The notes under the pieces: generated by a model
What the model was told of the DNA's origin: nothing
Databases searched by the model: none
The model's input: only the letters and a program-made list of their open reading frames with translations
Made by a program: the position numbers and the translations under genes
Shown: positions 1-48,799 of the stretch, one piece after another
Numbering within the stretch: the first letter of the stretch is position 1
Layout: each line of letters starts with the position of its first letter
From: a virus
Lineage: Duplodnaviria; Heunggongvirae; Uroviricota; Caudoviricetes
IMG/VR virus record: IMGVR_UViG_2513237251_000009
Direction: 5' to 3' (one strand)
Length of the DNA: 64,000 nt

Positions 1-1284
1 TTACAGACTTCTGGAAGGTTGCGCAGCTCTTACAACACGCGGTTGATCTTCCGCAGCGTCTTCCAGCGCACTTAAATCACGGTCTTTCACTTCTGGCATT
101 TTCAGCGCAGAGATTAAACCAATCACTGAATATGCCATGATCATAATGGCGATCGGATACCAGGATTCCGTCATGGTGCAGAAAATACCCGCCAGGATAG
201 GACCAAAACCGGAAGCGATAAGACCACCAATTTCTTTAGAAATAGCCATCCGGGTAAAGCGGTTTTTACAGCCGAACATTTCTGCCATGGTAATGTTTTC
301 CAGAGCAAATAATCCCAGCACCGCACAGTTATGAATCACAATCAGTGCAACCATAATGGTGCTCGGGGCATAGCTTTTATCTACGATGATAGAAAGCATT
401 GGCCATGCCAGCACAATCGCGGAGGTATTCATAATAATATACGGGATCCGGCGACCAATTTTATCGGATAACCAACCAAGGAACGGAATGGTCATAAAGC
501 CGGGAATCGAACTGATCATCAATGCATCTGTTGGAATTGCTTTGTTAAACAATAACGTCTGTACTAAATAGCCTGCAAGGAAAGTCTGAATTAACCCGGA
601 GTTACCTGCCTGACCAAAACGCAGCCCTGTTGCCAGCCAGAAGGATTTGCTCTGGAATATGCTACCAGCAGGTGCAGGTTTTGCTGTCGGTTGGTTGCTG
701 TCGTTAACCTTCTCAAAGACCGGGCTTTCTTTCAGATTCATACGCAACCAGATAGCAAAGACCATCACGACAACGCTCGCCAGGAACGGTATACGCCATC
801 CCCACGCCAGCAGTTCCTCTTTACTGAGAATGAAGAACATAAAGGCCCAGATTGCCGTTGCGCTCAAGGTTCCGCAGTTAGTTCCCATAGCCACAAATGA
901 GGAGATAATTCCGCGCTTACCTTTTGGCGCATATTCCGCCAGCATCGTACCGGCACCGGAAATTTCCGCACCTGCACCCAATCCCTGAATAATACGCAGC
1001 GTCACCAGCAAGATGGGGGCAAAAACACCAATCTGTGCATAGGTCGGTAACACTCCAATTAAGGTGGTACAGATCCCCATCATGGTGATGGTAATAAAGA
1101 GCACTTTTTTACGCCCTATTCTGTCGCCCATTTTGCCGAAAATAAATGCTCCGACAATACGCGCCACATAACCTGCACCGTAGGTTCCCATTGCCAGAAT
1201 TAACGCCATTGCCGTTGATGATTCAGGAAAAAATATTTCATGAAACACTAACGCTGCGCCGAGCGAATATAACTGGAAATCCAT
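1..1284 (-). CDS. ydfJ: MFS-family transporter (YdfJ-like metabolite:H+ symporter); host gene flanking the prophage
   Basis: 427-aa ORF, multiple hydrophobic segments, MFS-like motifs (GxxxDRxGRK); start codon sits at the prophage junction. Confidence 0.7.
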   Translation of the reverse strand: MDFQLYSLGAALVFHEIFFPESSTAMALILAMGTYGAGYVARIVGAFIFGKMGDRIGRKKVLFITITMMGICTTLIGVLPTYAQIGVFAPILLVTLRIIQGLGAGAEISGAGTMLAEYAPKGKRGIISSFVAMGTNCGTLSATAIWAFMFFILSKEELLAWGWRIPFLASVVVMVFAIWLRMNLKESPVFEKVNDSNQPTAKPAPAGSIFQSKSFWLATGLRFGQAGNSGLIQTFLAGYLVQTLLFNKAIPTDALMISSIPGFMTIPFLGWLSDKIGRRIPYIIMNTSAIVLAWPMLSIIVDKSYAPSTIMVALIVIHNCAVLGLFALENITMAEMFGCKNRFTRMAISKEIGGLIASGFGPILAGIFCTMTESWYPIAIMIMAYSVIGLISALKMPEVKDRDLSALEDAAEDQPRVVRAAQPSRSL

Positions 1285-1673
1285 AATTCATAGATGTTTT
1301 TTACTATTCTGTGGGTTTTTGGGTGTTTTCTAAGTTTTTTCAGATGGTTGTATTTTTTCTAAAAATCCCTAATCTCGATTTTGCTGTTTATTTGAGGCCT
1401 TTTTATGTCCCATATATGCCCCACAGATACCCCGCAGCCAAAATCAACAAAATGCCAAAAGGTTCTGTTCCTGCCCTGCAACAAGAAATGCTGCGACGTG
1501 TCAGTAAACGTTATGACGATGTAGAAGTGATCATCAAATCCACCAGCAACGATGGCCTTTCAGTTACTCGCACCGCCGATAAAGATTCTGCAAAAACTTT
1601 TGTTCAGGAGACGCTGAAAGATACCTGGGAGTCTGCTGACGAGTGGTTTGTTCGCTAATTAACGAGTAAAATC
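1276..1673. repeat. About 400-bp direct repeat at prophage boundary (copy 1), carrying ydfK and the first codons of ydfJ
   Basis: Identical to 47055..47337 plus 48651..48765 by eye; identity begins at gaaatccataattcatag. Confidence 0.7.
1452..1658 (+). CDS. ydfK: YdfK/YnaE-like small cold-shock-induced prophage protein
   Basis: 68-aa [20 protein letters not shown]..., resembles Qin/Rac YdfK/YnaE; ATG at 1452 inside longer alt-start ORF. Confidence 0.6.
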
Positions 1674-1819
1674 AGTAACGGCTGGAAATCATTCAATACT
1701 CGCACTATCGAAAGTTCACCAGCCAACCGCAGCACGTTCTTGCATACGAGGTGCCGCGTTTTACATGCTGTACCGAGAATTAATTTCATTTTACGAAAAG
1801 TTAACCCGCCATTGCTATC

Positions 1820-2461
1820 TTAATTTTTTAAAACGAAGTTACCTCTGTCAGAGTCAAAAGCACAATTATCTCTTCCTACAATCATTGAAACTGCGATTGA
1901 TTCCCTGCTCAAAGGATGAGCCGCCCTTGTTTTAACAAGATATATTAATGACATTTTATCATACAACATACAAACATTTGAATTCATTGAATTCCTCATA
2001 AATACCCCATCTTCTGGTTCACATAATGTAACAGGGCATGTTCGTAAGCTCTCTGGCACTTGCAATTGTGCATGCTCCACATTAAATGCACATACTTCAA
2101 TTTTATCTAACAACTCCTCTAACTGGTAGTTAGAAAGCAATTCCATATTTTCGAGCATCTCAATTTCACGCAGTACTGTAACTTCACGGCTTGTCAAACT
2201 ACCATGATTAAGTGTACGTTCAATATGTTCTATATATTGAAGGCCAATCTGGATGTTATCATTCGATAAACCATCCTGGTTAAGACTTCCCATAAAATAT
2301 CCATTTACCTGCATAGGTCGTATTGACACCATCAACTCACCCAGTCTTACTTGAGCTTCTCCACGAATAGTCTGATTACGTATCTCAGACAAGGTTTCTT
2401 GAGGAATGTCAGACAAAAAACTAACCCCAGGTAAAATATAAGGCGTTAAATCTACAGGCAT
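1820..2461 (-). CDS. nleG: NleG-family type III secreted effector (U-box E3 ubiquitin ligase family)
   Basis: 213 aa; C-terminal CPxTL...GVFMRNS...HPLSRExI motif typical of NleG; SD ggaggg upstream. Confidence 0.8.
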   Translation of the reverse strand: MPVDLTPYILPGVSFLSDIPQETLSEIRNQTIRGEAQVRLGELMVSIRPMQVNGYFMGSLNQDGLSNDNIQIGLQYIEHIERTLNHGSLTSREVTVLREIEMLENMELLSNYQLEELLDKIEVCAFNVEHAQLQVPESLRTCPVTLCEPEDGVFMRNSMNSNVCMLYDKMSLIYLVKTRAAHPLSRESIAVSMIVGRDNCAFDSDRGNFVLKN

Positions 2462-2542
2462 TCCTCTCCCTCCATTTTAATAATTTAATTTTGCTTTAGT
2501 AAAAAATAAAAATACACAAAACTATATTTATAGCATTAATTA

Positions 2543-3172
2543 TCACTTACAACAAAAAGCTTCTCTTTTTGCATCAAAGTGACATTCGTCTTTTCTCATA
2601 ATCATTGATTCTGTTATAGGTTCTCGACTCAGAGGATGAGTTCCACCAGTTTCAACAAGTTGCACTAACGCATCCTTATCATATAGAGAGCATATCTCAG
2701 CACCTCGTGAGTTTCTCATGAACACTCCAGTCTCAGGTGTGTCCAGCGTTATCGGGCATGTCAAAAATGACTCCGGGCAAGAAAAGTGATTAGAATCCGT
2801 TCCAAATACACAAGAATTTATTTTTTCCATTAATATTTTATTACCTGTTTTATTTTCTCTGTGTTCTGCCATGACACTCTGAAAATAGTTATTAACACTA
2901 CTTAAAAAATCGACACCTCCATTTAATTGCCTTTCCAGAGCCACAGCCCTTCTATCCATTCGATGCTCACGCCCCAATAGCCTATCCAGTAAGCCTCCTC
3001 TCACCGGTTCAACTGAAAATCCATCCAGTAGTTGGACATAGTGAACAGAATATTGGCCACTACCAATGGATATTCTTATTCCACTTTCAAGTCTGGCTGC
3101 ATCCTGCAAAGACTGTACTCTTGCAGGAGATAATTGAGATATACTTGGGATACTTAAGGTGGTAACAGGCAT
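2543..3172 (-). CDS. nleG: NleG-family type III secreted effector
   Basis: 209 aa; CPITLDTPETGVFMRNS...THPLSREPI motif; SD gagg upstream. Confidence 0.8.
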   Translation of the reverse strand: MPVTTLSIPSISQLSPARVQSLQDAARLESGIRISIGSGQYSVHYVQLLDGFSVEPVRGGLLDRLLGREHRMDRRAVALERQLNGGVDFLSSVNNYFQSVMAEHRENKTGNKILMEKINSCVFGTDSNHFSCPESFLTCPITLDTPETGVFMRNSRGAEICSLYDKDALVQLVETGGTHPLSREPITESMIMRKDECHFDAKREAFCCK

Positions 3173-3244
3173 AAAAACCTCATTCAGTAATTCATATCAG
3201 TTTGCAGGATGTTTCATTAAATAAAATAAATGGTAATGTTCATT

Positions 3245-3820
3245 TCAATTACCCTTTATAATGAAGTTTCCTCTGGTATCGTCATAAATGCATTCTTCAT
3301 GTTTTACAATTATTGATGCCGTTATTGGTTCCCGGGTCAGTGGGTGGGGTAAGCCTTCACCAACCAAACGAGAAAATGCAGCGGCATCAAATAAAGTACA
3401 TACATCTGAACCATCTGAATTCTTCACAAAAATACCTTTTTCAGGCTGCTCCAGTGTAATTGGACACTGAATAGCCTCAAGCGGGCACTGAAGTCTCTCT
3501 GGACAAACAGAAAACTTACATTGAGATATTTTGTTCTGAATACTCTCTTGCGATTGTGCTTCACCTGAGTCCGAAAGCATACTTAGCATTCTCTCACCAA
3601 GGGCTCGAGGACCACTATTAAATCCCAAAAGCAATAACTCAGAAAGCAATCCGCCATTACCGCCACTGGATGAAAAGCGCCCATTAGTAGAATCATACAC
3701 AATACTGACAGTTTCACCACCGACTGTAATATCTCCGCGCCCATTGGCTACAATTCGGGCACGAACAACCTCCACCCCAAGATTAAATGAATGTGATCTA
3801 ATATCTGAGGTTAATGGCAT
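3245..3820 (-). CDS. nleG: NleG-family type III secreted effector
   Basis: 192 aa from ATG 3820 (SD gggag); CPITLEQPEKGIFVKNS...PHPLTREPI motif. Confidence 0.75.
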   Translation of the reverse strand: MPLTSDIRSHSFNLGVEVVRARIVANGRGDITVGGETVSIVYDSTNGRFSSSGGNGGLLSELLLLGFNSGPRALGERMLSMLSDSGEAQSQESIQNKISQCKFSVCPERLQCPLEAIQCPITLEQPEKGIFVKNSDGSDVCTLFDAAAFSRLVGEGLPHPLTREPITASIIVKHEECIYDDTRGNFIIKGN

Positions 3821-3892
3821 AACAAAGCTCCCTATTTTAATTTGAACTCCAGACTTAAATAGCTGTAACAAACATCCCCCATACGTGACAAC

Positions 3893-3920
3893 AAAAAACC
3901 GGAGCCGGACTCCGGTTTTT
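3893..3920. terminator. Bidirectional intrinsic terminator separating tail module from NleG cargo
   Basis: A-run, ccggag/ctccgg hairpin, T-run; same element recurs near 53748..53776 and 54616..54644. Confidence 0.5.
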
Positions 3921-3933
3921 GTGAAGCTGTCGG

Positions 3934-4203
3934 CTATTTCATCCCGCCAATATTTTCCCACGTCCCGTCAGCACGCAGGATTTGCAGCGGTCTTACCACA
4001 CACTGTATCTGCTTTTTATCCGCATCCAGTATCACCACCTGCGTGATTACCCTGTCCTGCTCCGGGATAATACCATTCTCATCGGACTCCAGAATGTCTG
4101 CCGGTCCCAGTCGCAGCTGTGCTGTAAGTAACTCCCCGTTTTCACGGTCATCATGCTTTCCGCAACCGCACAGACGCTGCATAATTTTTTTTAATATGTT
4201 CAT
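3934..4203 (-). CDS. Hypothetical 89-aa protein downstream of side tail fibre
   Basis: ORF with SD aggag before ATG 4203; identical copy at 54658..54927; no recognised domain. Confidence 0.45.
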   Translation of the reverse strand: MNILKKIMQRLCGCGKHDDRENGELLTAQLRLGPADILESDENGIIPEQDRVITQVVILDADKKQIQCVVRPLQILRADGTWENIGGMK

Positions 4204-4204
4204 G

Positions 4205-5432
4205 TCATTCTCCTGTTCTGCCTGTATCACTGCCCACTTCATCCAGCCCCTTAACATCCTGCCACGGCCCGTCACCAAACCTGACCTGCAAATGCTGAAA
4301 AAAACCCTGAACCCGTGTGGCATCTTTGGGGTCAAGAAAGGTCAGTCCGGTGATGAGTGCGCCATCTGTATCCGGGAACCAGCCATGGCTGTTTGTCTCA
4401 ATAATGTTTCCCGGCCCCAGACGGAACCGTATTTGCGTCTCCCCCGGGTCGCCCTTCGGCCCCTGAGGTCCGGTTGCCCCCACCGGGCCAGCCGCACCTG
4501 TTTCTCCTTTCGGTCCCTGTGGGCCTGCCGGGCCTGCCGGGCCTGCCGGACCAGCATCACCTGCCGGCCCCCTTTCACCGGTTGCCCCTGCCGGACCGGT
4601 GTCTCCACGCTCTCCTTTATCTCCCTTCGGCCCCTGAGGACCCGCGGGACCCGGTTCCCCCTTTGGCCGGGAGGCCCACCACCGTGGGGATTCGGTTTAC
4701 GGCCTCTTCCGCCGCTATCCTGCTTTGTTCCCGCTGACTGTGCGCTTTCTGCTGACTCCCGGGCTTTTTCTGTTGCGGTCGTTGCATCCTGGCTGCATTA
4801 CCGGCTGCACTTTCTGCCGTCTTTTTTGACAACTCAGCATCTGCTGCACTTTGTGATGACTCACTGGCTTTTTGAGCGGCCGCAGAGGCCGAGGACGAGG
4901 ACGCCTCCTCTGACTGCTTTGCAGCGGCTGCACTTTCTGCCGCCTGCCGGGCTGACTCCGATGCATCCCCTGCTGAAGTGTCAGCATTTGCCGCGCTCTC
5001 TTCTGCCTGACTGGCTGATATGCCGGCATTCCTCGCGGACGTCTCCGCCTCTCCGGCATTCTTCTTCGCCTCCTCAGCGTGACGCGCCGCTTCTTCCACC
5101 ATCAGTTCAAAACGACGCAGTGCCTCCGGCCGGACGTCATCCTCCGACATGGCACCGAGAAAATCATTCAGCGTCCCCGGTTGAGAATCTTCATACACGG
5201 TGATGGTCCCGGCATGTGACGGCGGGAACCCTTCCACCAACAGAATAACGCTGTACTGACCGTACTCAACGTCCATGCTGTAACGACCGGCTTCATCCGG
5301 ATTTTCAGAGGCCACCGTGTTCACCACCACCGTGGCGCTGTTACGTCTGGCTTTCAGTTGAATGGTGCAGTTCTCTACCGGTTTTCCTGTGCCGTCTTTC
5401 AGTACACCTGAAATCTTTACTGCCATATTCAC
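4205..5432 (-). pseudogene. Side tail fibre with collagen-like Gly-X-Y repeats, disrupted by frameshifts
   Basis: Split into 4617..5432 and 4205..4483; intact 409-aa paralogue at 54929..56158; differences are single-base indels in C/G runs around 4660..4800. Confidence 0.65.
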
Positions 5433-5490
5433 CCCACAAAAAAGCCCGCCTGAACCGGCGGGCTGTCATAACACTGTGTTACCTGGCTAA

Positions 5491-6090
5491 TCAGAACTTA
5501 TAACCGACACCCACGATGAAACCGTCAGTGCGCCAGTCGCCACTGCCGGAGCCTTCATAAGCAATATCAATGGCCACGGATTCGGTCGGGTTAAACTGCA
5601 CGCCAGCCCCCCACGCCAGAGACGTGTTGCTGTGGCGACCGTCATCACTTCCGGTCAGCACATCGTGCGTTTTCCCCTTGTTGTCAGTTACGCGAAGATA
5701 ATCCCCGGAGAAAGTCGACACACGGCTGTAAGCCACACCCGCCATCGCATACGCGCTGAACCATTCATTCACGCGCACAGACGGCCCCGCCATTACGCTG
5801 AACCAGCGGTTACGCACGGAATCTTCATGCCAGCGGGTATCGCTGTAACGGGTAAGCTGGCGATTCTTGTCTCCTGCATAGCTGAATGACGTCACCAGCC
5901 CCAGCGTGTCCGTAAATTCATAACGGTATTTCACGTTAATCCCGTTAAGATTATCGCTACCGGGAGCGCTCGTCCGGGCATGAAGATACCCCGCGCTCAG
6001 CGTGGCCTGCTGCTCAGACGCCCATGCAGGCGCGCCGGATACGGCCAGACAGATGGCTGCGGACAAAATGGCGGCATAAAGTTTACGCAT
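5491..6090 (-). CDS. lom: Lom/Ail-family outer membrane protein
   Basis: 199 aa, signal peptide, beta-barrel-like C-terminus ending GYKF; position after J as in lambda. Confidence 0.85.
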
Positions 6091-6157
6091 AATTACCTCT
6101 CGCTTTTCTGCAATAAAAAAGGCGCCATTTCTGGCGCCCGTATATGGGTTATAAAAT

Positions 6158-9100
6158 TCAGCTGATACTGATACCTGCTGTGGATTTTTTCATCACCACA
6201 ACCAGCAGATCGCTGATACTGGTTGTTGGTGTCCAGTTATTCGCTCCTGATGAAGATACGGTGAATGTCAGTGTCAGCGTCCCCTGTCCGGCAGGCATAT
6301 CTATAACTGAGGAAAATACGCCCTGAGCATCCGTCGTGGACTGATTAAAAATCTCCTGACCATTGCGGGTCACTCTTAACCGGCAGGTTGAATACCAGTA
6401 TGACTGTTGGTTATTACTGTTGAAATTCTCATGCTTACCACCGCGGAATAACACTGGCGGTATCATGACCTGCCGGTCAAACTTCTGATCATCACTGATT
6501 CTTACCGTGATGGTGCCACTGGCATAAGTGCTCGTGCGGGGGAAAGACTTGCTGACCGTTTTGACAATATCGCCTTCAATCTGGTTGGCTGACAGTTTCC
6601 CCTTAATCTGACAGTTCTCATTAATCGTGACGTTGTTGAGCGTCCCTGAGTTCGCATTCACACTGCCACTGATATCCGCATTTTTCGCCGTCAGTCGCCC
6701 GTCCGGCGTCAGGGAAAACGTCGGGGGATTGCCGGACGAGGTGATACTCACCGCAAACAGTCGCTTCAGGAACACGTCGTTCATGAACAGCTGATTCCCC
6801 TGCGCCACAAATAACGGCGTGCTGTTGCCGCTCTCCGGATTTATCATCGCGATACGGTCAGCCAGCAGCAGTATGTTGCTCAGTGGCTGGCCATCAGTAT
6901 CCTCAATCCCTGCACCAATCCCGGCCACATAGGGAATGCCGTCTTTCGTTTTTTGAACCTTCAGCATGTACAGCGCAGCCAGGTCATCATTTGTGTCCTT
7001 CTGCACGCGCTGTATCTGCTGTATAGTGGCGCTCTGGTTCTCCAGCGTTTTACTGACCGTCTGTGTGATTTCATTGCGGGTTTCCGTGATGGTGGTCTTC
7101 ATCTCCGCCATCTCATCCGCAAGCTGGCTGTTGTCTATCAGCTCCCATAGCCCCTGAGCCAGATGCAGTTTTCCTATTTTTTCCCGGAAAAATTCCAGAT
7201 ACCCTTCACCATCATTGCTGGGCTGCCCGCTGACTTCCACAAACGCAGATTTCCCCACCAGGTTGACGCTGCGCACGTAAAACCAGAAATCCGTCCCCGG
7301 CTTAATCCGGCTTCCCTGGACAGTCCACTGACTGCCGCTCCCCAGATAACGGGCAGATTTTTCCACCTGTGCCGTGTTCGTGATGCGTTTTTCCGAAAAC
7401 CAGAACTCAAACTGCACCGTCGGGTCATACACCGCCAGCACCGGTACCGCCGTTATCTGAAAATACCCCGGCGTCAGTTCAATGGTGGCGGGTTTTGCTG
7501 GCGCGTTAATCCGGAAGGTGGTGATGGCCGGTTCCCCCTGCTGGCCATAACTGTTAATTGCCCTGACTGTCAGGGTGTATTCCCCGAGCGGCAGACCACT
7601 GAAACGATGCTCTGTATCCGCAGTGATGGCGGTGGTCACCAGACGGCTGTCCTGACCGCTTCCACTGGTCAGGCGCAGACTGAAGCGCACGCCCTTCACC
7701 ACCCGCGGCGTGTCCCATTTCGCCTGCGCCAGATACTGGCTGTCAGCTGCACTCACCTCCACCGTCAGGTGCTGCACTGCCGGAGGGATGACGCTGTTCA
7801 GGGTGCCGCTCTGGTCGCCGTCAAAGTGCGCCCCGTTATCCACGATGGCTTCTTTTTCCGGTACGTGCTGCACTGCCGTGATGGCAAAGGTGCCGTCCGT
7901 GTTTTCCCGGATGGAGACACAGCGGAACAGGCGACGACGCAGTGACGGCAGGGAGAGCCCCCACACACCGTATGTCTCCACGCCATCCGGCAGGGTGCTG
8001 ACCTGTATCCGGTCCGGCGCGGGGTGTGCAGTGATGGCCACGCTCACCGGCTTACCGCTGCCGTTAATCAGGTTCACCGTGGCGGCACCGGTCTCCGGCA
8101 GGGTCACCTCACGGTCCAGTGTCAGGGTGCGGCTGGCGGCATCGATGGACAGGATACGTCCGCCGGTCATGGTCCCGGCATAGTCGTTATCACAGATTTC
8201 AATAATGTCACCGGGTGTGTGACGCAGCCCCTGTGACCCGAGCGTGAAATCCACCGTCTGCGTTTCCAGCAGTCCGGTCTTTATCACCCACAGCCCGGCA
8301 CGGTGGGCCTGACCGCGACTGGTACAGCCGAACGCATCCATCTTCAGCAGGTTGCGCCCGTAGCGCAGTATGGCTTCCGGGTCTTCCACCAGTTCCGTGG
8401 AGGTCTGCCAGCCGTTCTGCGGGTCGGTGTAATTCACCTCCACCGCCGTGTGGCGGTCCTTCAGGGCGCTGAAGCTGTAGCGAAACCCCACGCCGTTATC
8501 ATCCACCACCACATCACTGTTGGTGTACGGCCACACCACATCCGACGGACTGTCCTGAACGAACGTCAGCGTCTGGCCGTTCCATACCGGCATACAGCGC
8601 ATCGCCGAGCAGAAATCACTGAGAACGTCCCACGCCTTACGCTGTTGTGACAGGTACGCATTAAAGGTCATCCGCGGCTCTGTGCCCCCGAAACCATCAG
8701 GGACCATCTGGTCGCAGTACTGCGCAATGGCATACAGCGCCCACTTGTCCACATCCGCCGCCCCCAGGCGTTTTCCCATGCCGTAGCGCGGGTGAGTCAG
8801 CATGTCCCACAGGCACCAGGCCGGGTTGTTGCTGTATGCCGGTTTCAGGCTGCCGTCCCAGATGCCGCTGTACGTGCGTTTTTCCGGGTCATAGTTTGAC
8901 GGCACCTGGATGATGCGACCGCGGATATGGTAGTTCACCGTCATCTGCTGACCGCCAAACTGCTCCGCATCCACCTGCAGCCCCACAATGGCCGTGTTCG
9001 GGTAGCACTGTTTCACATCGATGATTTCGGTGTATGACGACCACAGCGTTCTGTTCTGCAGCTGGTCCGTGGTGCTGTCCGCCGTCTCCCTGACCATCCG

Positions 9101-9637
9101 GATGTTAAAGGGCCGGGGCGGCAGATTATCCAGAATCACCGACGCCAGGAACTGCGAGGTGGTCTTGCCGTTAATGGTGACATCCTTTTCCGTCACCCAG
9201 TTACCGTTACGCTGCAACTGAATCAGCAGTCGGACAGAAGAGTGATTACGGTCGCCCTTTGAGGTGGTCTCCAACAGTGACTGCACCCCGAAGGTGACCC
9301 GCAGGCGGTCAATGTTCGCGGACGTAATGGTGCGCGTCACCGGCTTTGCCTTCGTCACTTCCACGCCCAGTGCGGTTTCAGCTCCGGAGGACTCAAAGCC
9401 TTCCGGTGGTGTCTGCTCCTGCTCCCCGGCACGCCAGACCGCAGTCACACCGTGTATCACGGGATTACCGTCCGTGTCCGTCAGCGGGGTTTTGTTCACC
9501 AGAATACTCTGCAGCCCCTTCACCGGACCTTCAATCGGCCCTTCACCAATGGCGTCAATCACGCTCATCATCTGCGTGGACTTAAGATTGTCCTTTGCCT
9601 CTACCGGCGTGTGCCCCTTGCCGCCCCCTTTACCCAC
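6158..9637 (-). CDS. J: Tail tip host-specificity protein J
   Basis: About 1159 aa from GTG 9637 (SD ggagagggg); strong resemblance to lambda gpJ throughout. Confidence 0.9.
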
Positions 9638-9877
9638 TCTGTCCCCCTCTCCTGTCTGATGTCTGAATCTGTTTATGCCAGAAAACAACAGGCACCCCGG
9701 AGGGTGCCTGTGTCATGACGGAATAAAATTTCTGAAACTCTTCACATTTCCGGCAATTGCCTGTAGCCGCAATAATGACGCTGCATTACTTTTTTGATGC
9801 CTGAAAAATAACTCCATAACGTTAATCTTCATCGTTCTCTCCCGCAGCTCCGCTAACTCTGCGGGATTTTTTTATTT

Positions 9878-10555
9878 TCATCCCCGCCCGATAACCACCA
9901 CTTTCCCGTCTCCGCCCTCATCACGGGTGCTGATGTCCTGGGATATCCGTCGTGAACCAACCAGCATTTCACCATAAGGCACCGGCATCGGGTTCCCCTG
10001 GGCAATCATGTTATCCAGTGACGAAAAATACGTGTTCTGTTTACCGTTATCCGTCGCCCTGTACTCCGGTGTTTTTGCCTTCGGTGCCAGCATCTGGGCC
10101 ACACCGCCCAGTATCATGCTGGCACCCAGTGAGAACAGCATCGTGGTGGCAGTCAGCCCTCCGGCACTCAGGGCTGCGCCCCACAACGCCATCGTTGCGC
10201 CGGCGGTGAAGAAAGAGCCCACGATGGCTGCCGCCCCCAGCACAATCTGCAGTCCACCCTTTCCGGCTCCGGCCAGTCGCGGCACAATATGGATGACCGC
10301 CCCCTCACCCAGAGGTTCGTGAAGACGGGCGTACACCGCCTCCGGTGCCGTGTCCTCACCGCGAATACGTATCTGGTACCAGCCTTCGTTCATCTGACGG
10401 CGGAATCCCGGCATCTGCAGCGACAGGGCACGGATGGCTTCCGCTGCCGTGTTCACGTACAGGCTGAGGCGGCGGCCAAATCGTTGCAAATCCCCGTGAA
10501 GGCAGATGCGTGCCAGTGGCGGTGACGCCAGACAGAATGCGTTCGTCGTTGCCAT
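9878..10555 (-). CDS. I: Tail assembly protein I
   Basis: 225 aa; MA..LASP.ARICL.GDLQRFGRR... resembles lambda gpI. Confidence 0.85.
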   Translation of the reverse strand: MATTNAFCLASPPLARICLHGDLQRFGRRLSLYVNTAAEAIRALSLQMPGFRRQMNEGWYQIRIRGEDTAPEAVYARLHEPLGEGAVIHIVPRLAGAGKGGLQIVLGAAAIVGSFFTAGATMALWGAALSAGGLTATTMLFSLGASMILGGVAQMLAPKAKTPEYRATDNGKQNTYFSSLDNMIAQGNPMPVPYGEMLVGSRRISQDISTRDEGGDGKVVVIGRG

Positions 10556-11196
10556 TTTTCAGAATACCTCTCCCGTTTACTCAGTTGTTCAGGCAGATGG
10601 TGAAGCAGTTCACCGTTGCCGCAGTATATGGCGGCATGATTGGCCACCGATGCGCCAAAGCAGCACAGCAGGATATCGCCCGCCTGTGCAGAGGACAGGG
10701 GCACCCGGTAAAAACCAGTCGCCGCCATATTGTCCAGGTAAAGGTTCTGACCGTTGCGCCACCAGTCATCCTCACGCTCAAAATCCGGCAGCGTTATCCC
10801 CGCCAGATGGTATGCATCCCGGAACAGGGTGTAACAGTCCGTCACCCCGTGCTCAAAACGACGCCCGGTCAGGTGCGGCACACAGCGGAATTTATGAATT
10901 TCCCCCCGGCAGACCAGCCACCAGGGCAGGGCACTCTTTATCTGCAGCCGCCGGTCGGCCTCGCTCAGCCAGGGCAGACCACCAGGGTGGCTGTGAACCA
11001 GCGCCACAATCTCCCCCTGCATCTCTGCCTGCAGCCAGTCTTCCGGCGCAATACGAAAATACGCCTCCGGCTCTGCGGAGATATTCACGCAGGGCTGGTA
11101 CCGTTCGCCCTCCGGGGTGCCTATCACGAAGCCGCACGACTCCGCAGGCGCACACCGCCGGGCATGCACCAGAATCGCTGATTCAGTCTGTGTCAT
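10453..11196 (-). CDS. K: Tail assembly protein K (NlpC/P60 plus JAB/MPN-like)
   Basis: ATG at 11196 (MTQTESAIL...); HSHP motif; overlaps I as in lambda. Confidence 0.8.
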   Translation of the reverse strand: MTQTESAILVHARRCAPAESCGFVIGTPEGERYQPCVNISAEPEAYFRIAPEDWLQAEMQGEIVALVHSHPGGLPWLSEADRRLQIKSALPWWLVCRGEIHKFRCVPHLTGRRFEHGVTDCYTLFRDAYHLAGITLPDFEREDDWWRNGQNLYLDNMAATGFYRVPLSSAQAGDILLCCFGASVANHAAIYCGNGELLHHLPEQLSKRERYSEKWQRRTHSVWRHRHWHASAFTGICNDLAAASACT

Positions 11197-11206
11197 AAAA
11201 CAGGAT

Positions 11207-11905
11207 TTACTGCGAAAGTTTATTGATGGAAAGGAAACCGCCAAAATTAGCCACCATGCCGCGCATCTCACACCCGCGCATGCACTTGCTGCATCTGTCC
11301 TTACGGATATCCGTGGTGGGGTTGTCGAACTCATCCGCCACCGCAGGACCGTTATACCCGCATTCATCTCCCCGGTAATCCCACATACAGGTATTCGCCA
11401 GCATAATGCGACCGGGAAACAGCGCTCCGTCCGTCTCCGTCGGTGTCGCCAGCACAAACGAGGCCGTCATGGCCGTCAGCGATGACATCTGCTCCACCAC
11501 CCACCGGTCCGTCAGCTCCTGCTCAGGGTCTGCCTCAGGATTGCCTGCCACAAAATTCACCGCATCCAGAAAACGGGCATACACCCGGCGGCGGACCACC
11601 GTGGCCCCCACCAGGCTCTGCAGGTCCTCCGCCATCCCGGTGACCAGACCAAACAGATTCGACACCGTCAGCGACGGTCTGGCACTGCTGCCCTTCCCGT
11701 TCATCTCAAAGCCACTGCCGTCAATCGGGTATGCCTGATATTGCCGCCCCTGCCAGGTAACCGCCTCCCCTTTTTCATTCAGCTCATTGCAGAAAAAATA
11801 CCGCTCACCGCCCTGCGCCGTCAGGTCGATTTCCCAGAGTACCACCCGCGGTGACTGCTCTGATTTAACCGACTCGTTCAGACTTTCTTCGTGAATATCC
11901 TGCAT
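11207..11905 (-). CDS. L: Minor tail protein L
   Basis: 232 aa with Cys-rich C-terminus; resembles lambda gpL. Confidence 0.9.
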   Translation of the reverse strand: MQDIHEESLNESVKSEQSPRVVLWEIDLTAQGGERYFFCNELNEKGEAVTWQGRQYQAYPIDGSGFEMNGKGSSARPSLTVSNLFGLVTGMAEDLQSLVGATVVRRRVYARFLDAVNFVAGNPEADPEQELTDRWVVEQMSSLTAMTASFVLATPTETDGALFPGRIMLANTCMWDYRGDECGYNGPAVADEFDNPTTDIRKDRCSKCMRGCEMRGMVANFGGFLSINKLSQ

Positions 11906-12234
11906 CAGTTCACCACCTGCTTAAACTCCGCGCTGAACTCAACGCGCAACATCCCGACCCGCGCAGACCACCCGGCACAGGTCACCTTTATCTGCCGGTA
12001 TGCATAGGGTGGCTTCCACAAAAATGCCTTCCAGCCTCCGTGCTCTGCCAGGAACGCTTCCAGATGCCGGGCCTCCTCCCGGGTCACGGAAAGCGTCACA
12101 CGGTATGTTTTCAGGTCAGCATTCAGCCCTGCCGCCATACGCTGTGAGTACCCGTCACCAAAACGCACTTCACGCACCGATGGCTGCGAGTTCACCTCCA
12201 TATCCGGCTTCACTTTCCAGCGAAAGGTTTTCAT
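11905..12234 (-). CDS. M: Minor tail protein M
   Basis: 109 aa; resembles lambda gpM. Confidence 0.9.
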   Translation of the reverse strand: MKTFRWKVKPDMEVNSQPSVREVRFGDGYSQRMAAGLNADLKTYRVTLSVTREEARHLEAFLAEHGGWKAFLWKPPYAYRQIKVTCAGWSARVGMLRVEFSAEFKQVVN

Positions 12235-29730: not shown

Positions 29731-31539
29731 TCAAACGCCATACGCTGCATTTTTTGTAACATCCGTCAGCGTCAGCGCATTCAGTCCCAGTGTCAGACTG
29801 TCTTTTATAACCTGGAATGCCGGGCCAGCCACTCCATTCAGTTTCGGAGTAACCGTGGCACTGCCGGCGGTGAACACCAGCTCCAGCGTCTGCCAGTCGT
29901 TACCGTAATCGCCGAACTCCCCCAGCTTCGTGTTTCCGGCTTTCCTGTGATGCATCAGATTCACTCTGCCGTCAGTGGTCTGAGTGAAGTACGACATCAG
30001 GAACGGATTACCGGTACCCGTCATCGCCACACCATCAGGAACGGGAGCGTCCGTATACAGATAAATCCCCAGCCCGAACTGATTGTTGGTCAGTGCGCCT
30101 GACAGGCGGAACTTACAGGTCAGTCTGCCGCCCTGTGTCAGCAGGGTAATTGCGTCATCCACCGGATGCGTCAGGGACCAGGTTTTATTGCTCTGCCTGG
30201 TGATCTTAAATACACCATCTGACAACTGAATTCCGCCATCCTTAATGCTCCAGCCCTGCGCAGCAGCCTCTCCGGCTGCCGGCAGCAGGGAGATTGTGCG
30301 AACGGACGTATCTGCAGACGGACCCGATGGCGTGTTGCCGCCGGGCGAGGGTTTGATTTCCGGTGCCTTACCACTGATGAAGGCTGAGGTGCGCCCGGCT
30401 GCGTTCAGAATAGCGGTTGCCAGACGATCCGGAATAATGCTCCTGCGCGCCCATGAACTGAAATGTGTCGGGCGGTTTGATGATACCTGGTTTCCATTCG
30501 TTCTCGATGCCGCACCGTAATATCCTGATGCCGGAATATCCGGATCTTCTGCCGGCGCGTTAGTGGCGGTATTGACGCCGTTACCGTCTGTCATGAAGGG
30601 CACAAAATAAACGCCCTCACTCTCCCTGTTTTTATACCCGCCGTACACGGTGTCGTACTGGGTAGCGTATGTATTTTTCCAGTAATACGTCGTGTCACCA
30701 CAAATCCACGGCACATCTGCAGCACTGCCACCATGGCACTGCGCGTTAAACACGGAGAGGTCAGCACGAAACTGTGTCAGCATGGCTGTAAACAGCGCAG
30801 GTTGCTGTGCGTGGGTGGCGGCGCTCATGTCAAACTCTCCCTGCATCCAGCACACCGCCAGCAACACATTTTTCGGGTTCTTCTGTAATGCAGCTTTGGT
30901 GCGCGCAATCAGGTCCTGATATAACGGTTTACCCACACCCCAGCGCGCCGAATCCTGGCTGGCCCCCGTGGACTCGCTGAATATCCCCTCCGCGCCCTGG
31001 GTAAATGCCGAACCACCACGACAGCATGGTACCAGCAGGATCCCCGCGTTATTCGGGATATACGGGAGCAGTTTTTTGGCAATATGTAACCCCTGGCCGA
31101 CACAGCCGTACTGCCCTTTGCTCAGGTCTGCCTTCGGATGATTCAGCGTACTCATATCCTGCACATCATGCAGGCAGTGGTCGGCCGGAATAATATCGTT
31201 ATATCTGCAGGCAGCCCCACCCGGCGTCACTGTACTGCGGCGCGCCAGCTGTTTAATGCGCGGATCCGGAGCATCGTATGAATCCGGCAGCGGAAGCCCT
31301 TCACCGTAAGCCATGGCATTGGACTGCCCGGCCAGTACGATGACGTAGTACCAATCCGGCTCAGTTGCACCACTGACCACCACATCACCTTCTGCTGTAA
31401 TCGCCTGCATCAGGGTATAAGGGGTTATGGCCACCGGACTACCAAACGGCTGCCAGCCCTCTTTCAGTTTGTGTGTCAGCTTTTCCGCAAGGTCTGACGG
31501 CGACGCCGCCCTGACAACATCATAATGTTTAATCGACAT
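29731..31539 (-). CDS. nanS: Prophage NanS-p-type sialate O-acetylesterase (DUF1737 plus SGNH hydrolase)
   Basis: 602 aa; N-terminal DUF1737-like segment, GQSN block of SGNH esterases; sits upstream of S as yjhS/nanS-p does in Stx phages. Confidence 0.75.
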   Translation of the reverse strand: MSIKHYDVVRAASPSDLAEKLTHKLKEGWQPFGSPVAITPYTLMQAITAEGDVVVSGATEPDWYYVIVLAGQSNAMAYGEGLPLPDSYDAPDPRIKQLARRSTVTPGGAACRYNDIIPADHCLHDVQDMSTLNHPKADLSKGQYGCVGQGLHIAKKLLPYIPNNAGILLVPCCRGGSAFTQGAEGIFSESTGASQDSARWGVGKPLYQDLIARTKAALQKNPKNVLLAVCWMQGEFDMSAATHAQQPALFTAMLTQFRADLSVFNAQCHGGSAADVPWICGDTTYYWKNTYATQYDTVYGGYKNRESEGVYFVPFMTDGNGVNTATNAPAEDPDIPASGYYGAASRTNGNQVSSNRPTHFSSWARRSIIPDRLATAILNAAGRTSAFISGKAPEIKPSPGGNTPSGPSADTSVRTISLLPAAGEAAAQGWSIKDGGIQLSDGVFKITRQSNKTWSLTHPVDDAITLLTQGGRLTCKFRLSGALTNNQFGLGIYLYTDAPVPDGVAMTGTGNPFLMSYFTQTTDGRVNLMHHRKAGNTKLGEFGDYGNDWQTLELVFTAGSATVTPKLNGVAGPAFQVIKDSLTLGLNALTLTDVTKNAAYGV

Positions 31540-39941: not shown

Positions 39942-39956
39942 AATCGTTTCTCAGAT

Positions 39957-43349: not shown

Positions 43350-43360
43350 TGAGGTTGACG

Positions 43361-44604: not shown

Positions 44605-44773
44605 AAAGTGAATTTTGTGATGCGGTGAATGCGGCTAAGCGCACGCGGAACAGTTAAAACCAAAAACAGTGTTATGGGTGGATTCTCTGTATCCGGCGTT
44701 AATTGTTAACTGGTTAACGTCACCTGGAGGCACCAGGCACTGCATCACAAAATTCATTGTTGAGGACGCGATA

Positions 44774-44962: not shown

Positions 44963-45147
44963 CTTCAGCATTTGCACTGATGATGACGGTTTTTCTTATA
45001 ACGGGTGAATCACAGAATGTGATTACCGGAATTTATGCCAGTAAAGAATCCTGCCTCCAGGCAAGAGACGAGCAAAAAATTTCTGGTGAATGCCTCCCGG
45101 TAAAAAAAGTATCGCTGTACCTGAATAACGAAACACCGGCTGGATAA
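44959..45147 (+). CDS. ydfD: YdfD-like small membrane/lysis protein
   Basis: 62 aa MTSAFALMMTVFLITGE..., resembles K-12 YdfD; 4-nt overlap with dicB. Confidence 0.65.
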   Translation: MTSAFALMMTVFLITGESQNVITGIYASKESCLQARDEQKISGECLPVKKVSLYLNNETPAG

Positions 45148-45239
45148 CCCTCCAGCCATATTAACACCATACCAACGGATTAAAAATGCCAGCAATGGCA
45201 GGGATTTGTTCACCCTTAAATCTGTAATGAGGTTTATCA

Positions 45240-46484
45240 ATGAGCACTGATAAAGAAGAATTTGCGCTATATTGCGAAGCAAAAAATGACAAAGTCAGAA
45301 AACGTCTGGGAATTAAAGGTGGTTTTTACTGGACTACAGCAAAAAAATTATCTGTTGCCATCTCCCGCTGCATTACCGCAATGGATGACAACGATTATGA
45401 TGAAGACGACTTTAAAAAACCCGTTCGCGTCCATTTACCCGTTGTGAATGACCTTCCACCTGAAGGCGTGTTTGATACCGAATTCTGCAACCGATACGAA
45501 AAAGGCGGGGAAGATGGCATTACAATGGTATTTATCGCGCCCTCTCCCTCCGTGCAGGAGAAACCAGCCAGTACTGACAATACCAACGTCAACGGCGAAG
45601 ACATGACGGAGATTGAGGAGAATATGCTCCTGCCGGTTTCTGGTCAGGAGCTGCCCATTCGCTGGCTTGCGCAACACGGCAGCGAAAAACCAGTAACGCA
45701 CGTTGCACGGGAAGAACTTCAGGCATTACATATAGCACGGGCGGAAGAACTGCCGGCTGTTACTGCCTTGGCCATTTCTCACAAAACAAAGCTGCTCGAC
45801 CCGCTGGAGATTCGCGACCTTCACAAACTGGTACGCGACACTGACAAAGTTTTCCCTAATCCCGGTAATTCAGACCTGGGACTGATAACTGCTTTTTTCG
45901 AGGCATACCTGGACGCTGACTACACTGATCGGGGTCTGCTGACAAAAGAGTGGATGAAAGGAAATCGTGTTTCGCGTATCACCCGTACGGCTTCCGGTGC
46001 AAATGCCGGTGGCGGGAACAAAACCGATCGCAATCCGAATTTAGTACACACCTTCGATACGCTGGATGTGGAGATTGCAGCAGCCACACTTCCGATGGAT
46101 TTTAATATTTATGAAATTCCGGGCAGCGTTTATCGTCGCGCAAAAGAAATCGTCCTGAAAAGAGAAAGTCCGTTCAAAGAATGGTCCGCAGCACTTCGCG
46201 CAACCCCGGGTATTCTGGACTATTCCCGCGCCGCTATTTTTGCACTTATCCGGAGCGCTCACCCTGAGTTTTATCACTACCCGGGACGCCTTCAGGGGTA
46301 TATCAACGCCTACTTAACGGAGACTGATCACGAGAACCCCAGCAAGGAAACTCTCACTGCTGCACGACATACACCGGAAAAAGATATCCTGGAAGAAGTT
46401 AACCGCGAACTGTCTGCTAAGCAGGAAACAGAAGAAGAAAATGATGAAGAAAAACCGCAACCATCTTGCGCAATGGCAGAATGA
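45240..46484 (+). CDS. Hypothetical 414-aa protein (YdfE-like position)
   Basis: Large ORF between ydfD and integrase fragment; acidic C-terminal tail; unknown function. Confidence 0.45.
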   Translation: MSTDKEEFALYCEAKNDKVRKRLGIKGGFYWTTAKKLSVAISRCITAMDDNDYDEDDFKKPVRVHLPVVNDLPPEGVFDTEFCNRYEKGGEDGITMVFIAPSPSVQEKPASTDNTNVNGEDMTEIEENMLLPVSGQELPIRWLAQHGSEKPVTHVAREELQALHIARAEELPAVTALAISHKTKLLDPLEIRDLHKLVRDTDKVFPNPGNSDLGLITAFFEAYLDADYTDRGLLTKEWMKGNRVSRITRTASGANAGGGNKTDRNPNLVHTFDTLDVEIAAATLPMDFNIYEIPGSVYRRAKEIVLKRESPFKEWSAALRATPGILDYSRAAIFALIRSAHPEFYHYPGRLQGYINAYLTETDHENPSKETLTAARHTPEKDILEEVNRELSAKQETEEENDEEKPQPSCAMAE

Positions 46485-47017
46485 TAATCAGAAGAAATCT
46501 GGCAAAAGACCGTTTTACAGTACCAAAAACACAGGCGGGAACCAATCGTGTGATTCACCTTATTAAGCCCGCAATCGACGCTCTCCGGAGTCAGATGGCA
46601 CTAACGAGACTGAGCAAAGAGCATATCATCGATGTTCACCTCAGAGAATTCGGCAGAACAGAGAAACAAAAATGTACCTTTGTTTTTCAACCTGAAGTGT
46701 CAGCGAAAGTAAAAAATTATGGCGACCATTTTACCGTTGACTCAATAAGGCAGATGTGGGACGCAGCGGTAAAGCGTGCCGGAATCCGCCATCGCAAATC
46801 GTATCAGTCGAGACACACTTATGCCTGCTGGTCGTTAACAGCAGGAGCTAACCCGGCATTCATTGCAAACCAGATGGGCCATGCAGATGCGCAAATGGTG
46901 TTTCAGGTGTACGGGAAATGGATGTCAGAAAATAATAATGCGCAGGTAACGCTGTTAAATACACAGTTAAGCGAGTTTGCCCCAACCATGCCCCATAACG
47001 AAGCGATGAAAAGTTAA
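46466..47017 (+). pseudogene. int: Tyrosine integrase, C-terminal catalytic fragment only
   Basis: 183 aa with catalytic-domain pattern (RHTYACW...HADAQMVFQVYGKW); N-terminal about 200 aa absent, overlapped by upstream ORF. Confidence 0.65.
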
Positions 47018-47054
47018 TTTTTTATTTATCAATTAGTTAGATTGAATGACTCTT

Positions 47055-47337
47055 GAAATCCATAATTCATAGATGTTTTTTACTATTCTGTGGGTTTTTG
47101 GGTGTTTTCTAAGTTTTTTCAGATGGTTGTATTTTTTCTAAAAATCCCTAATCTCGATTTTGCTGTTTATTTGAGGCCTTTTTATGTCCCATATATGCCC
47201 CACAGATACCCCGCAGCCAAAATCAACAAAATGCCAAAAGGTTCTGTTCCTGCCCTGCAACAAGAAATGCTGCGACGTGTCAGTAAACGTTATGACGATG
47301 TAGAAGTGATCATCAAATCCACCAGCAACGATGGCCT
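47055..47337. repeat. Direct repeat copy 2, first part (continues 48651..48765 after IS629)
   Basis: Matches 1276..1558; junction between prophage A int end and prophage B. Confidence 0.7.
47231..47337 (+). pseudogene. ydfK: Second ydfK copy interrupted by IS629 (3-prime part at 48651..48750)
   Basis: Same sequence as 1452..1558 then IS629 left end. Confidence 0.6.
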
Positions 47338-47379
47338 TGAACCGCCCCGGTTTTCCTGGAGAGTGTTTTATCTGTGAAC

Positions 47380-48270
47380 TCAGGCTGCCAGATCATCGTT
47401 TCCGATGGAAGCATAATAAGCTTTTTCTGCTTCTGCCGGAGGAGTATGGCCCAGCCTTCCCAGCAATCGTCGATTGTTATACCAGTCCACCCACGTTAGT
47501 GTGGCCAGTTCCACTTCTGCACGGTTTTTCCAGCTCTTACGGTGTATTACCTCCGCTTTGTAAAGACCATTGATGCTCTCAGCCATCGCGTTGTCATACG
47601 AGTCGCCTGTACTCCCTGTTGATGCCAGTAATCCGGCTTCTTTTAGTCGCTCCGTATAGGCCAGTGACACATACTGAGAGCCTTTATCGCTGTGATGGAT
47701 GGTGCCAGACGGACGACGGGCCCACAACGCCTGCTCCAGCGCATCCAGCACGAATGTCGTTTCCATAGACGATGAGACCCGCCACCCCACGATGTATCCG
47801 GCAAACACATCAATGATAAACGCCACATAGACGAAGCCCTGCCATGTGCTGACGTAAGTAAAATCAGCCACCCACAGCTGGTCAGGTCGTTCTGCCACGA
47901 ACTGACGGTTTACGCGGTCGCCTGCGGCAACGGCTTTCCGGCTGATGGTCGTACGGACCTTTTTACCCCGGAGAACACCGGCAAGTCCCATAACCGCCAT
48001 GAGACGTGCCACTGTACATCTGGCCACCCTGATTCCTTCCCGTAACAACTGACGCCAGACTTTACGCACACCGTACACCTGATGATTTTCATCGTATACG
48101 CGCTGTATCTCTCTCTTCAGCCAGTCGTCGTGCTGCGCACGGGCACTGCGTTTATCCGGATGATGTCGCTGTTGCTGACAATGGTAATACGTTGACGGGG
48201 CAATATGCAGTTCGCTGCATACCGGTCCGACCCCGTACTGCTCACGCAGCTTATCCAGCAGTGGCATCAT
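47380..48270 (-). CDS. IS629 transposase OrfB (DDE integrase domain)
   Basis: 296-aa IS3-family orfB. Confidence 0.85.
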
Positions 48271-48593
48271 TTTTTCCAGAGGCGGTCGAACTCCGCCTTC
48301 GCAAAATAAGCGGAAGCCTGGCGAAGGATATCGTTACTGCGGCGCAGTTCACGATTTTCACGTTCCAGCTCTTTCAGACGCTGACGTTCAGCGCTGGTGA
48401 GCCCACCATCACCGCCCCCGGTATCCCGCTCATGCTGGCGAACCCAGACACGCAGAGTCTCCGGCGTACAGCCAATCTTTGGGGCAATGGAACAAATTGC
48501 CGCCCACTGTGAGTCATATTCATCCTGACTTTCCAGAACCATACGAATCGCCCGCTGACGGACTTCGGGGGAAAAACGAGTATTTTTAGTCAT
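48267..48593 (-). CDS. IS629 OrfA (HTH)
   Basis: 108-aa IS3-family orfA, overlaps orfB. Confidence 0.85.
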
Positions 48594-48799
48594 CCTGTTT
48601 ACCTCTTTCTCAGGGAGTTTAGTCTCCAGGATTTCCGGGGCGGTTCACCTTTCAGTTACTCGCACCGCCGATAAAGATTCTGCAAAAACTTTTGTTCAGG
48701 AGACGCTGAAAGATACCTGGGAGTCTGCTGACGAGTGGTTTGTTCGCTAATTAACGAGTAAAATCGACCCTGTACACGATTCTGTGTAAATGCCTTTTC

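Follow-up and report, generated by a model that had tools for sequence, protein, structure and literature searches.

How two defective lambda-like prophages come to lie head-to-tail at one chromosomal gene, and by what route such a pair can still change, is the question raised by the ydfJ locus in IMG/VR virus record IMGVR_UViG_2513237251_000009 (Caudoviricetes). The 64,000 nucleotides of this record that were analysed, referred to here as the window, are the known ydfJ cluster of Escherichia coli O157:H7 (Sakai or a near-clone), which consists of the two defective prophages Sp11 and Sp12. An earlier note, made from the sequence alone, had described tandem lambdoid prophages at ydfJ joined by a direct repeat, and this description is correct, the pair being Sp11 and Sp12 of Sakai. 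It is very probable that Sp11 and then Sp12 lie in tandem at a shared attachment (att) site, that the repeat between them consists of the att core and the phage P′ arm, and that the cluster changes by homologous recombination. The structure of the cluster, its core, the order of its markers and both expected kinds of recombination product in natural genomes are observed directly.

The first 3.2 kb of the window are matched at 100% in about 260 E. coli O157:H7 genomes, Sakai and EDL933 among them. The window is identical to Sakai (NC_002695.2) from 45002 to 64000, and its first 50 kb differ from Sakai by 8 single-nucleotide polymorphisms (SNPs) and one 1-bp insertion (at 29735), beyond which coordinates carried over from Sakai are shifted by +1. 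In the Sakai annotation, 'prophage Sp11, lambda-like phage' spans 1277-47055 and 'prophage Sp12' begins at 47056, boundaries that fall at the repeat edges, and Sp12 extends about 34 kb past the window to a truncated integrase pseudogene that directly abuts ynfA. The features of the two junctions are as follows, with strand where one applies and the basis in brackets.

1 to 1284, minus strand: ydfJ', the 3′ 427 codons of an MFS transporter gene from internal Met29, a prophage-truncated pseudogene (Sakai annotation)
1276 to 1286: att core copy 1, attL of Sp11, with the sequence GAAATCCATAA (common to attB, attP, attL and attR)
1276 to 1673: repeat copy 1, core and P′ arm of Sp11 with an intact dinI-like gene (self-comparison)
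1277 to 47055, minus strand: prophage Sp11 (lambda-like), with its effector/tail end at the left and the exo'-'int remnant at the right (Sakai sequence_feature)
1416 to 1658, plus strand: DinI-like gene with the PGAP start; Sakai ECs_2153 starts at 1344 (Pfam DinI PF06183, annotations)
45240 to 46484, plus strand: Sp11 exonuclease pseudogene, 3′ end deleted (Sakai annotation)
46481 to 47017, plus strand: remnant of the 431-aa Sp11 tyrosine integrase, residues 254-431 (100% identical to the C-terminus of LSU61 Int)
47018 to 47054: P arm of Sp11, from the int stop codon to the core (collinear with mEp460 attP and the P arms of attR in K-12 and O55:H7)
47055 to 47065: att core copy 2, at the Sp11/Sp12 junction, with attP topology (site alignment)
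47055 to 47337: repeat copy 2, left part, core and 5′ part of the dinI of Sp12 (self-comparison)
47056 to 64000, minus strand: prophage Sp12, left third (Sakai annotation)
47338 to 48647, minus strand: insertion sequence (IS) IS629/IS1203, IS3 family, within dinI copy 2 (inverted ends, Sakai annotation)
48651 to 48765: repeat copy 2, right part, 3′ part of dinI (self-comparison)
48766 to 52530, minus strand: ISEic2 (IS256 family, 1315 bp), split by ISEc8 and partial in the Sakai annotation (Sakai annotation)
49621 to 52062, plus strand: ISEc8 (IS66 family), with an 8-bp GACATCAG duplication (Sakai annotation, genome comparison)

The 11-bp core, GAAATCCATAA, occurs only twice in the window, at 1276 and 47055, that is, at the host-prophage and the prophage-prophage junctions. 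It is the only stretch common to attB, the attP of phage mEp460, and the attL and attR of both K-12 Qin and O55:H7 CB9615, just as it is all that Qin attL and attR share with each other. Six kinds of site (attB, mEp460 attP, the attL/attR of Qin and of CB9615, and the window pair) align on this one core with the expected arms. The site at 1276 reads host arm, core, P′, and the site at 47055 reads P arm, core, P′, which is the topology of attP. Over 722 bp the latter junction runs collinear, at 89%, with the int-attP region of mEp460, Tritos, HannyBb and PhiR42_1; an identical contiguous int-core-dinI attP was not found in the phage collection, where the best match is of the mEp460 type at 89% and diverges some 137 bp into the arm. 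An '18- or 19-bp att' was defined for ydfJ prophages by Nakamura et al. 2021 (PLoS Pathog, PMC8112680), and the core of the window lies inside CTGGAAATCCATAATTCA (18 bp, attL) and CTTGAAATCCATAAATTCA (19 bp, attR), the lengths of which match theirs.

Joining the two host arms round the core yields an attB that is in frame, reading MTIEKHERSTKDLVKAAVSGWLGTALEF-MDFQLYS... in a 455-aa YdfJ. This reconstructed site is present in one piece at 100% identity in many E. coli genomes, with a coverage of at least 80% in 2010 of the 5426 genomes of the collection searched, and at a real empty site, in strain M217, an intact 1368-bp (455-aa) ydfJ adjoins rspB. In K-12 the prophage Qin occupies the same site next to the same 1284-bp ydfJ, with an orphan N-terminal piece of the gene, ynfP, beyond intQ. 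The ydfJ' product of the window matches Pfam MFS_1/Sugar_tr and carries the PGAP flag 'missing N-terminus' in sister strains. At 1282-1284, within the core, stands an ATG that encodes Met29, an internal residue of the 455-aa ancestral YdfJ; it is therefore common to attB and attP.

Self-BLAST of the window aligns 1273-1559 with 47052-47338 at 99.65%, the only mismatch being at 1275/47054, and 1556-1673 with 48648-48765 at 100%. Removal of IS629 and its target duplication leaves 398 bp at 100%, and a perfect 398-bp duplicate within 64 kb is not chance. The gene on the repeat belongs to the DinI family (PF06183): the copy-1 product scores 63.3 bits against the profile (cutoff 24.2, E=2.7e-17) and covers it in full, and the copy-2 match is cut at profile position 36 by IS629. 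K-12 YdfK, a cold-shock protein of Qin, gave no blastp match to the repeat's DinI-like protein at E<=10 and no tblastn match in the window or the remainder of Sp12; the region has no ydfK. That gene lies, in K-12 and phage mEp460, about 800 bp further in, on a different type of arm.

These results bear out the main line of what the earlier note had proposed for the repeat. Its equation of 1276-1673 with 47055-47337 plus 48651-48765 is borne out, and its placing of the att core at the left edge of the repeat agrees with the empty-site, Qin, O55:H7 and mEp460 comparisons, a position that had already been published. The gene that it named ydfK is the DinI-family gene instead. An ATG does stand near the first junction, where copy 1 was said to abut the ydfJ start, but it is not the native start, and it is overlapped rather than abutted. 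Copy 2 is situated between the prophages, as had been stated; it does not act as a spacer, being the terminal arm of Sp12 itself.

Sp11 and Sp12 are lambdoid phages of a single Int/att specificity group, which integrates at ydfJ codons 28-31 through the core GAAATCCATAA. The 398-bp repeat is that core together with a phage P′ arm carrying the dinI-like gene, identical in both phages. Copy 1 is attL of Sp11, and copy 2 combines the Sp11 P arm, the core and the Sp12 P′ arm into an attP-like junction.

The IS629 element in copy 2 measures 1310 bp, has inverted ends TGAACCGCCCCGG...CCGGGGCGGTTCA and annotated orfA/orfB transposase genes, and is flanked by a CCT target duplication (47335-47337 and 48648-48650); at this place it is absent from EDL933 and most tandem strains. 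In E. coli strain 6883 (NZ_CP074998.1; excerpt L019, 3641-4950) an IS629-like element likewise lies in a dinI-like gene at the attL of a ydfJ prophage. This element is 1310 bp long, 96% identical to that of the window and in the same orientation, with an AAT duplication, and stands 20 bp upstream of the insertion point of the window. The strain is unrelated and its insertion independent, so the dinI-like gene has been struck by IS629-family elements at least twice. The right edge of repeat copy 2 coincides with the end of ISEic2. To see whether ISEic2 simply interrupts a longer Sp11/Sp12 homology, a flanking target duplication was sought; a clean one was not found, and Sp11 homology is not resumed past ISEic2, which leaves the origin of the right edge undecided.

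Both prophages retain a remnant of a tyrosine integrase of the same specificity, 95-100% identical to the intact ydfJ-type Int, and both remnants are inactive. The Sp11 remnant has a partial Phage_integrase domain and lacks the Arm-DNA-bind domain. An intact module of the Sp11 type is present in LSU61, with a 2463-bp exonuclease gene, an excisionase gene (xis) and a 431-aa Int with both Arm-DNA-bind and Phage_integrase domains. The Sp12 remnant, which lies outside the window in Sakai (excerpt L003, 3333-4027), comprises residues 1-233 with a frameshift near residue 35 and is 95% identical. The integrases of CB9615, mEp460 and K-12 (intQ) are 94-97% identical to LSU61 Int. Since neither prophage encodes a working integrase, self-excision is dead, and Asadulghani et al. 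2009, having first predicted it, showed that neither Sp11 nor Sp12 undergoes circularisation, replication or packaging; the same study reported that all morphogenesis genes are kept in Sp11. The two dead integrases are complementary pieces of one 431-aa protein (254-431 and 1-233), which is probably a coincidence, although in principle one exchange between the two might restore the gene to full length.

Several records of 'Stx2a-converting phage' (LC727844-LC727870) end exactly at window 47065, the last core base, and their int 3′ end is 100% identical to that of Sp11 (window 46727-47065 compared). Shiga-toxin phages with the same Int/att specificity therefore exist, and an interaction of these with the ydfJ locus is possible.

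With self-excision lost, the remaining route of change would be homologous recombination between direct repeats, for which the cluster offers further substrates beyond the att-dinI repeat. The features concerned, together with the neighbouring effector loci, are the following.

1820 to 3820, minus strand: Sp11 effector locus with nleG5-2, nleG6-2 and nleG2-3 (Sakai annotation)
3232 to 11921, minus strand: Sp11 tail-fibre/Lom/J/tail-assembly module (87-93% to the Sp12 module)
4001 to 4668: 668-bp perfect tract, equal to 54725-55392, the crossover interval of the strain 142 hybrid (exact repeat search)
4788 to 6172: 1385-bp perfect tract in tail fibre/Lom, equal to 55514-56898 (exact repeat search)
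52608 to 54499, minus strand: Sp12 effector locus remnants nleG7', nleG3' and nleG2-4' (Sakai annotation)
53956 to 62746, minus strand: Sp12 tail-fibre/Lom/J/tail-assembly module (self-comparison, Sakai annotation)

By self-BLAST, the two tail modules are 93.4% identical between 3232-6242 and 53956-56968, 87.6% between 6537-9636 and 57262-60357, and 90.3% between 9720-11921 and 60534-62746. They were earlier taken to be near-identical; the pair is homologous as claimed, the identity being 87-93% overall with perfect tracts of 668 and 1385 bp. When Sakai sequence is used for Sp12 beyond the window, 22 direct repeats of 100 bp or longer match exactly between Sp11 and Sp12, the longest measuring 1385, 682, 677, 668, 652 and 650 bp. 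Strains that lack IS629 have the att-dinI repeat in full, at 398 bp. The suggestion that repeat and tail modules serve as recombination substrates is upheld by natural variants and by the literature.

The 1385-bp tract is 95-96% identical to each of its orthologues in LSU61 Sp11, LSU61 Sp12, CB9615 and F3113, none of which therefore matches as its donor. Both copies in typical O157:H7 have therefore been homogenised to a third allele, which is indirect evidence for gene conversion among prophage tail modules.

Two kinds of product would be expected from such exchanges. Recombination between the att-dinI copies would remove Sp11 precisely, with a loss of 45.8 kb, or of 47.1 kb if the crossover falls to the right of IS629. 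Recombination between tail or lysis modules would remove about 50.7-51 kb and leave a single Sp11/Sp12 hybrid. Complete genomes resembling both are found in nature. The junction ydfJ-core-intact dinI-ISEic2 is present at 100% in O55:H7, where it is ancestral, and in the O157:H7 strains ECP19-798, F3113 and FRIK1989. In ECP19-798 and FRIK1989 one intact 398-bp unit is followed by ISEic2::ISEc8, with ISEc8 at the EDL933/Sakai site, and then by Sp12, and 9.2 kb of host flank agree with Sakai at 100%. These two genomes are best read as typical O157:H7 that lost Sp11 precisely (45,779 bp).

The second kind of product was sought with a chimera that joined the left flank from Sp11, the identical tract and the right flank from Sp12; it had exactly one match of at least 99% among the 5426 genomes, in strain 142 from cattle. 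The locus of this strain contains a single hybrid prophage in which the left end and effectors of Sp11 are joined to the body of Sp12, and 10.3 kb of its host flank match Sakai at 100%. Up to window 4000, 185 consecutive diagnostic sites are of the Sp11 type, and from 4668 onwards 181 consecutive sites are of the Sp12 type; as the switch occurs between these positions, the crossover lies inside the 668-bp identical tract, with a deletion of 50,724 bp.

The order of events can be approached through the distribution of markers. In O55:H7 strains CB9615, RM12579, DEC5B and DEC5D the arrangement is ydfJ-core-intact dinI-intact ISEic2-nleG7-Sp12-like, without Sp11, and the right end of the CB9615 prophage has a complete int, xis, attR and rspBA. 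The Sp11-Sp12 junction is present in LSU61 and 493/89 without ISEc8 or IS629, and the left prophage of LSU61 is 99.5% identical to Sp11 over 17.5 kb (early region). In EDL933 the tandem shows the exo'-'int deletion and contains ISEc8, IS629 being absent; most tandem strains are alike in this respect, and IS629 is added in Sakai-type strains. ISEic2 is intact in O55:H7, LSU61 and F3113, and ISEc8 within it is a derived marker of typical O157:H7.

Because it stands alone at ydfJ in O55:H7, an Sp12-like phage would have been the first resident, and Sp11 would then have integrated into the attL of Sp12. Later, a deletion of ~2.3 kb (exo-xis-int) would have fused exo' to 'int in Sp11, and another would have taken the 3′ half of Sp12 int together with attR, ynfP and rspBA. 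ISEc8 would have entered ISEic2 and, last, in the Sakai sub-lineage, IS629 would have entered dinI copy 2. An attR (P arm, core, host arm) was not present at the far end of the Sakai array, where attR, ynfP and rspBA are deleted; attR is present in O55:H7 and K-12, and its loss in Sakai is secondary and carries no weight against a tandem origin.

At that far end (Sakai 2255026-2255286; excerpt L003, 4027-4287) the cut Sp12 integrase stands about 260 bp from ynfA, and Sakai is without attR, ynfP (the ydfJ 5′ fragment) and rspB-rspA, all of which CB9615 retains. As O55:H7 CB9615 still has rspAB, this starvation-sensing operon would have been lost with the Sp12 int-attR deletion on the way to typical O157:H7. 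At the other end, Sp11 of LSU61 has nleC in place of the nleG5-2/nleG6-2/nleG2-3 of the window (1674-3820), so that the effector locus next to the att arm has been swapped while the core and dinI arm stayed unchanged. The ydfJ cluster of F3113 (excerpt L012, 27090-28391, and the next 15 kb) has an integrase adjoining an OmpW gene fragment and further effector islands (espM1, nleG, nleF, nleH1-2, nleA); it is far more complex than the Sakai pair and resembles the prophage-in-prophage arrangement of Nakamura 2021.

A number of points weigh against tandem integration followed by homologous recombination as the full account. As split by IS629, the att-dinI repeat offers exact stretches of only 284 and 118 bp, which take 10th and 19th place in the set of 22. 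A crossover to the left of IS629 would give the exact junction ydfJ-dinI'::IS629, which has no single-piece match in the 5426 genomes, and the 7 genomes with a coverage of at least 80% have IS elements at other positions. The absence of Sp11 from ECP19-798 and FRIK1989 is apparent at the ydfJ locus, where it was assessed, and the public assemblies of these two strains and of strain 142 may have collapsed across repeats. The CC A5 strains PV15-279 and F3113 are without Sp11 and ISEc8 and have in common a private flank SNP and an internal Sp12 deletion; with them in the O157 tree, gain and loss of Sp11 are not uniquely parsimonious. Finally, precise loss of Sp11 would give the same sequence by RecA recombination as by Int/Xis recombination between attL and the mid-junction, which leaves the mechanism unsettled, and Int could have acted before the int deletion or in trans, Stx2a phage records with the identical int 3′ end being at hand.

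This last point forms the core of one rival explanation, in which ECP19-798 and FRIK1989 arose by Int/Xis excision between attL and the attP-like mid-junction, with the proteins supplied by Sp11 prior to its deletion or by a ydfJ-type phage in trans. Both sites have a perfect core and complete arms, LSU61 indicates that Sp11 once possessed intact xis and int, the Int proteins of the group are 94-97% identical, the Stx2a records end at the same core, and the product would be indistinguishable in sequence from that of homologous recombination. However, the exo'-'int deletion is probably older than the Sp11-less derivatives, because EDL933 and Sakai carry it and the derivatives share their ISEc8; moreover, circularisation of Sp11 or Sp12 does not occur in Sakai, and the other deletions in the cluster end in ordinary homologous repeats. 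Excision of this kind is possible though unlikely, and we infer that the products arose through RecA-type recombination instead of Int in trans, as we do the direction of each event. It is quite improbable that the Sp11-less O157:H7 genomes never had Sp11, their state being ancestral and no repeat-mediated deletion having occurred. Sp12 does stand alone at ydfJ in O55:H7 and in the CC A5 strains, and on a stepwise tree a gain followed by a loss requires as many events as two independent gains; yet ECP19-798 and FRIK1989 have ISEc8 at the EDL933/Sakai site and a flank 100% identical to Sakai, whereas genuinely Sp11-less lineages lack ISEc8 and have different flank SNPs. The tandem junction is, furthermore, already found in LSU61 and 493/89, with the left prophage of LSU61 matching Sp11 as noted.

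The repeat itself might be ascribed to a local segmental duplication, or to one prophage having inserted into another through an 'attB-in-prophage' site within it. In O157 ydfJ clusters, integration of prophages into prophages is common (Nakamura 2021, PMC8112680), and the OmpW fragment next to an integrase in F3113 is in keeping with it. Copy 2, however, begins with the host attB core, is preceded by the Sp11 P arm and int 3′ end, and continues into the arm that directly abuts ydfJ in O55:H7; this is the topology produced when an attP inserts into a resident attL, and an attB from a foreign locus is not seen. Such an origin is very improbable indeed. Internal attB sites from yecE, ompW and others were rejected on the core and arm of the junction, the published 21-, 96- and 121-bp attB-in-PP sequences not having been compared.

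Beside tandem integration and homologous recombination, a further idea is that Sp11 is a 'parked' element, open to excision and mobilisation in trans by a phage of ydfJ Int/Xis specificity, whether superinfecting or co-resident. It is suggested by the reported retention of morphogenesis genes and by two intact flanking att sites (attL and the attP-like junction), and it seems rather improbable. If it were true, Stx2a prophages with an int 3′ end identical to that of Sp11 would be candidate helpers, the nleG effectors and pchB of Sp11 would spread with its mobilisation, and in ECP19-798 and FRIK1989 one would see the footprints of helper-driven excision, not of RecA recombination.

The differences between the window and Sakai lie at 12543, 12546, 12589, 15907, 25761, 26634, 27642, 28462 and 29735, three of them within 47 bp in the tape-measure gene. 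A genome 100% identical over 25.5-30 kb was not found in the collection, the nearest being the current Sakai at 99.9%. As no collection genome carries the differences, they may be assembly-version corrections instead of biology, and the window is probably an older version of the Sakai assembly or a near-clone. Gene conversion from the Sp12 paralogue was rejected as a source of the 8 differences, since Sp12 has the Sakai base at both sites for which a paralogous copy exists.

Set against known systems, the locus is that of Sakai Sp11/Sp12 (NC_002695.2), a pair present also in EDL933, with boundaries, IS629 in dinI, ISEic2::ISEc8, nleG genes and integrase pseudogenes as annotated there, and nothing substantive differs. 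The PPydfJ clusters of Nakamura et al. 2021 occupy the same site and were likewise explained by phages with a common att accumulating in tandem; that study stresses additional prophage-in-prophage sites, whereas the Sakai-type array is a plain tandem pair. K-12 Qin and the free phage mEp460 use the same ydfJ attB and core, have a 94-96% identical integrase and the 427-codon ydfJ from Met29. Their P′ arm, however, bears ydfK-pin-tfa, in contrast to the dinI and type III secretion system effector genes of the Sp11/Sp12 arm; a 77-aa ORF of mEp460 is identical to YdfK, and the dinI body is missing in Qin. Side by side, Qin (excerpt L004, 4278-5306) and mEp460 (excerpt L009, 3075-4103) have the same core, an almost identical P′ arm and then pin and tfa, such that Qin looks like a decayed phage of the mEp460 type.

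Deletions in the cluster have been described before (Stanton et al. 2020, PMC7430833; clade-8 study PMC9997748). A natural 47.7-kb Sp11/Sp12 deletion occurred via an 822-bp antirepressor-gene repeat, and spontaneous Sp11-Sp12 deletions in Sakai are attributed by citing papers to Chen et al. 2013 (AEM 79:1934). Like the events in strain 142, ECP19-798 and FRIK1989, the published deletions lie between direct repeats common to both prophages; the published natural one used the antirepressor repeat, and the genomes considered here involve the 668-bp tail-fibre tract and the att-dinI repeat. The tandem arrangement, att site, dead integrases and deletions are thus already published, and no new biological principle is involved. 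What is added here is a base-level map of core and arms, the relative order of IS insertions and deletions from O55:H7, LSU61, EDL933 and Sakai, and three public genomes that resemble natural products of both predicted exchanges, all of use for annotation and for the design of polymerase chain reaction assays at the locus. Sp11 and Sp12 carry type III effector genes of the nleG family and pchB, regulator of the LEE (locus of enterocyte effacement), and deletions in the cluster alter both the patterns obtained in pulsed-field gel electrophoresis and whole-genome sequence typing and the set of effectors in a major food-borne pathogen.

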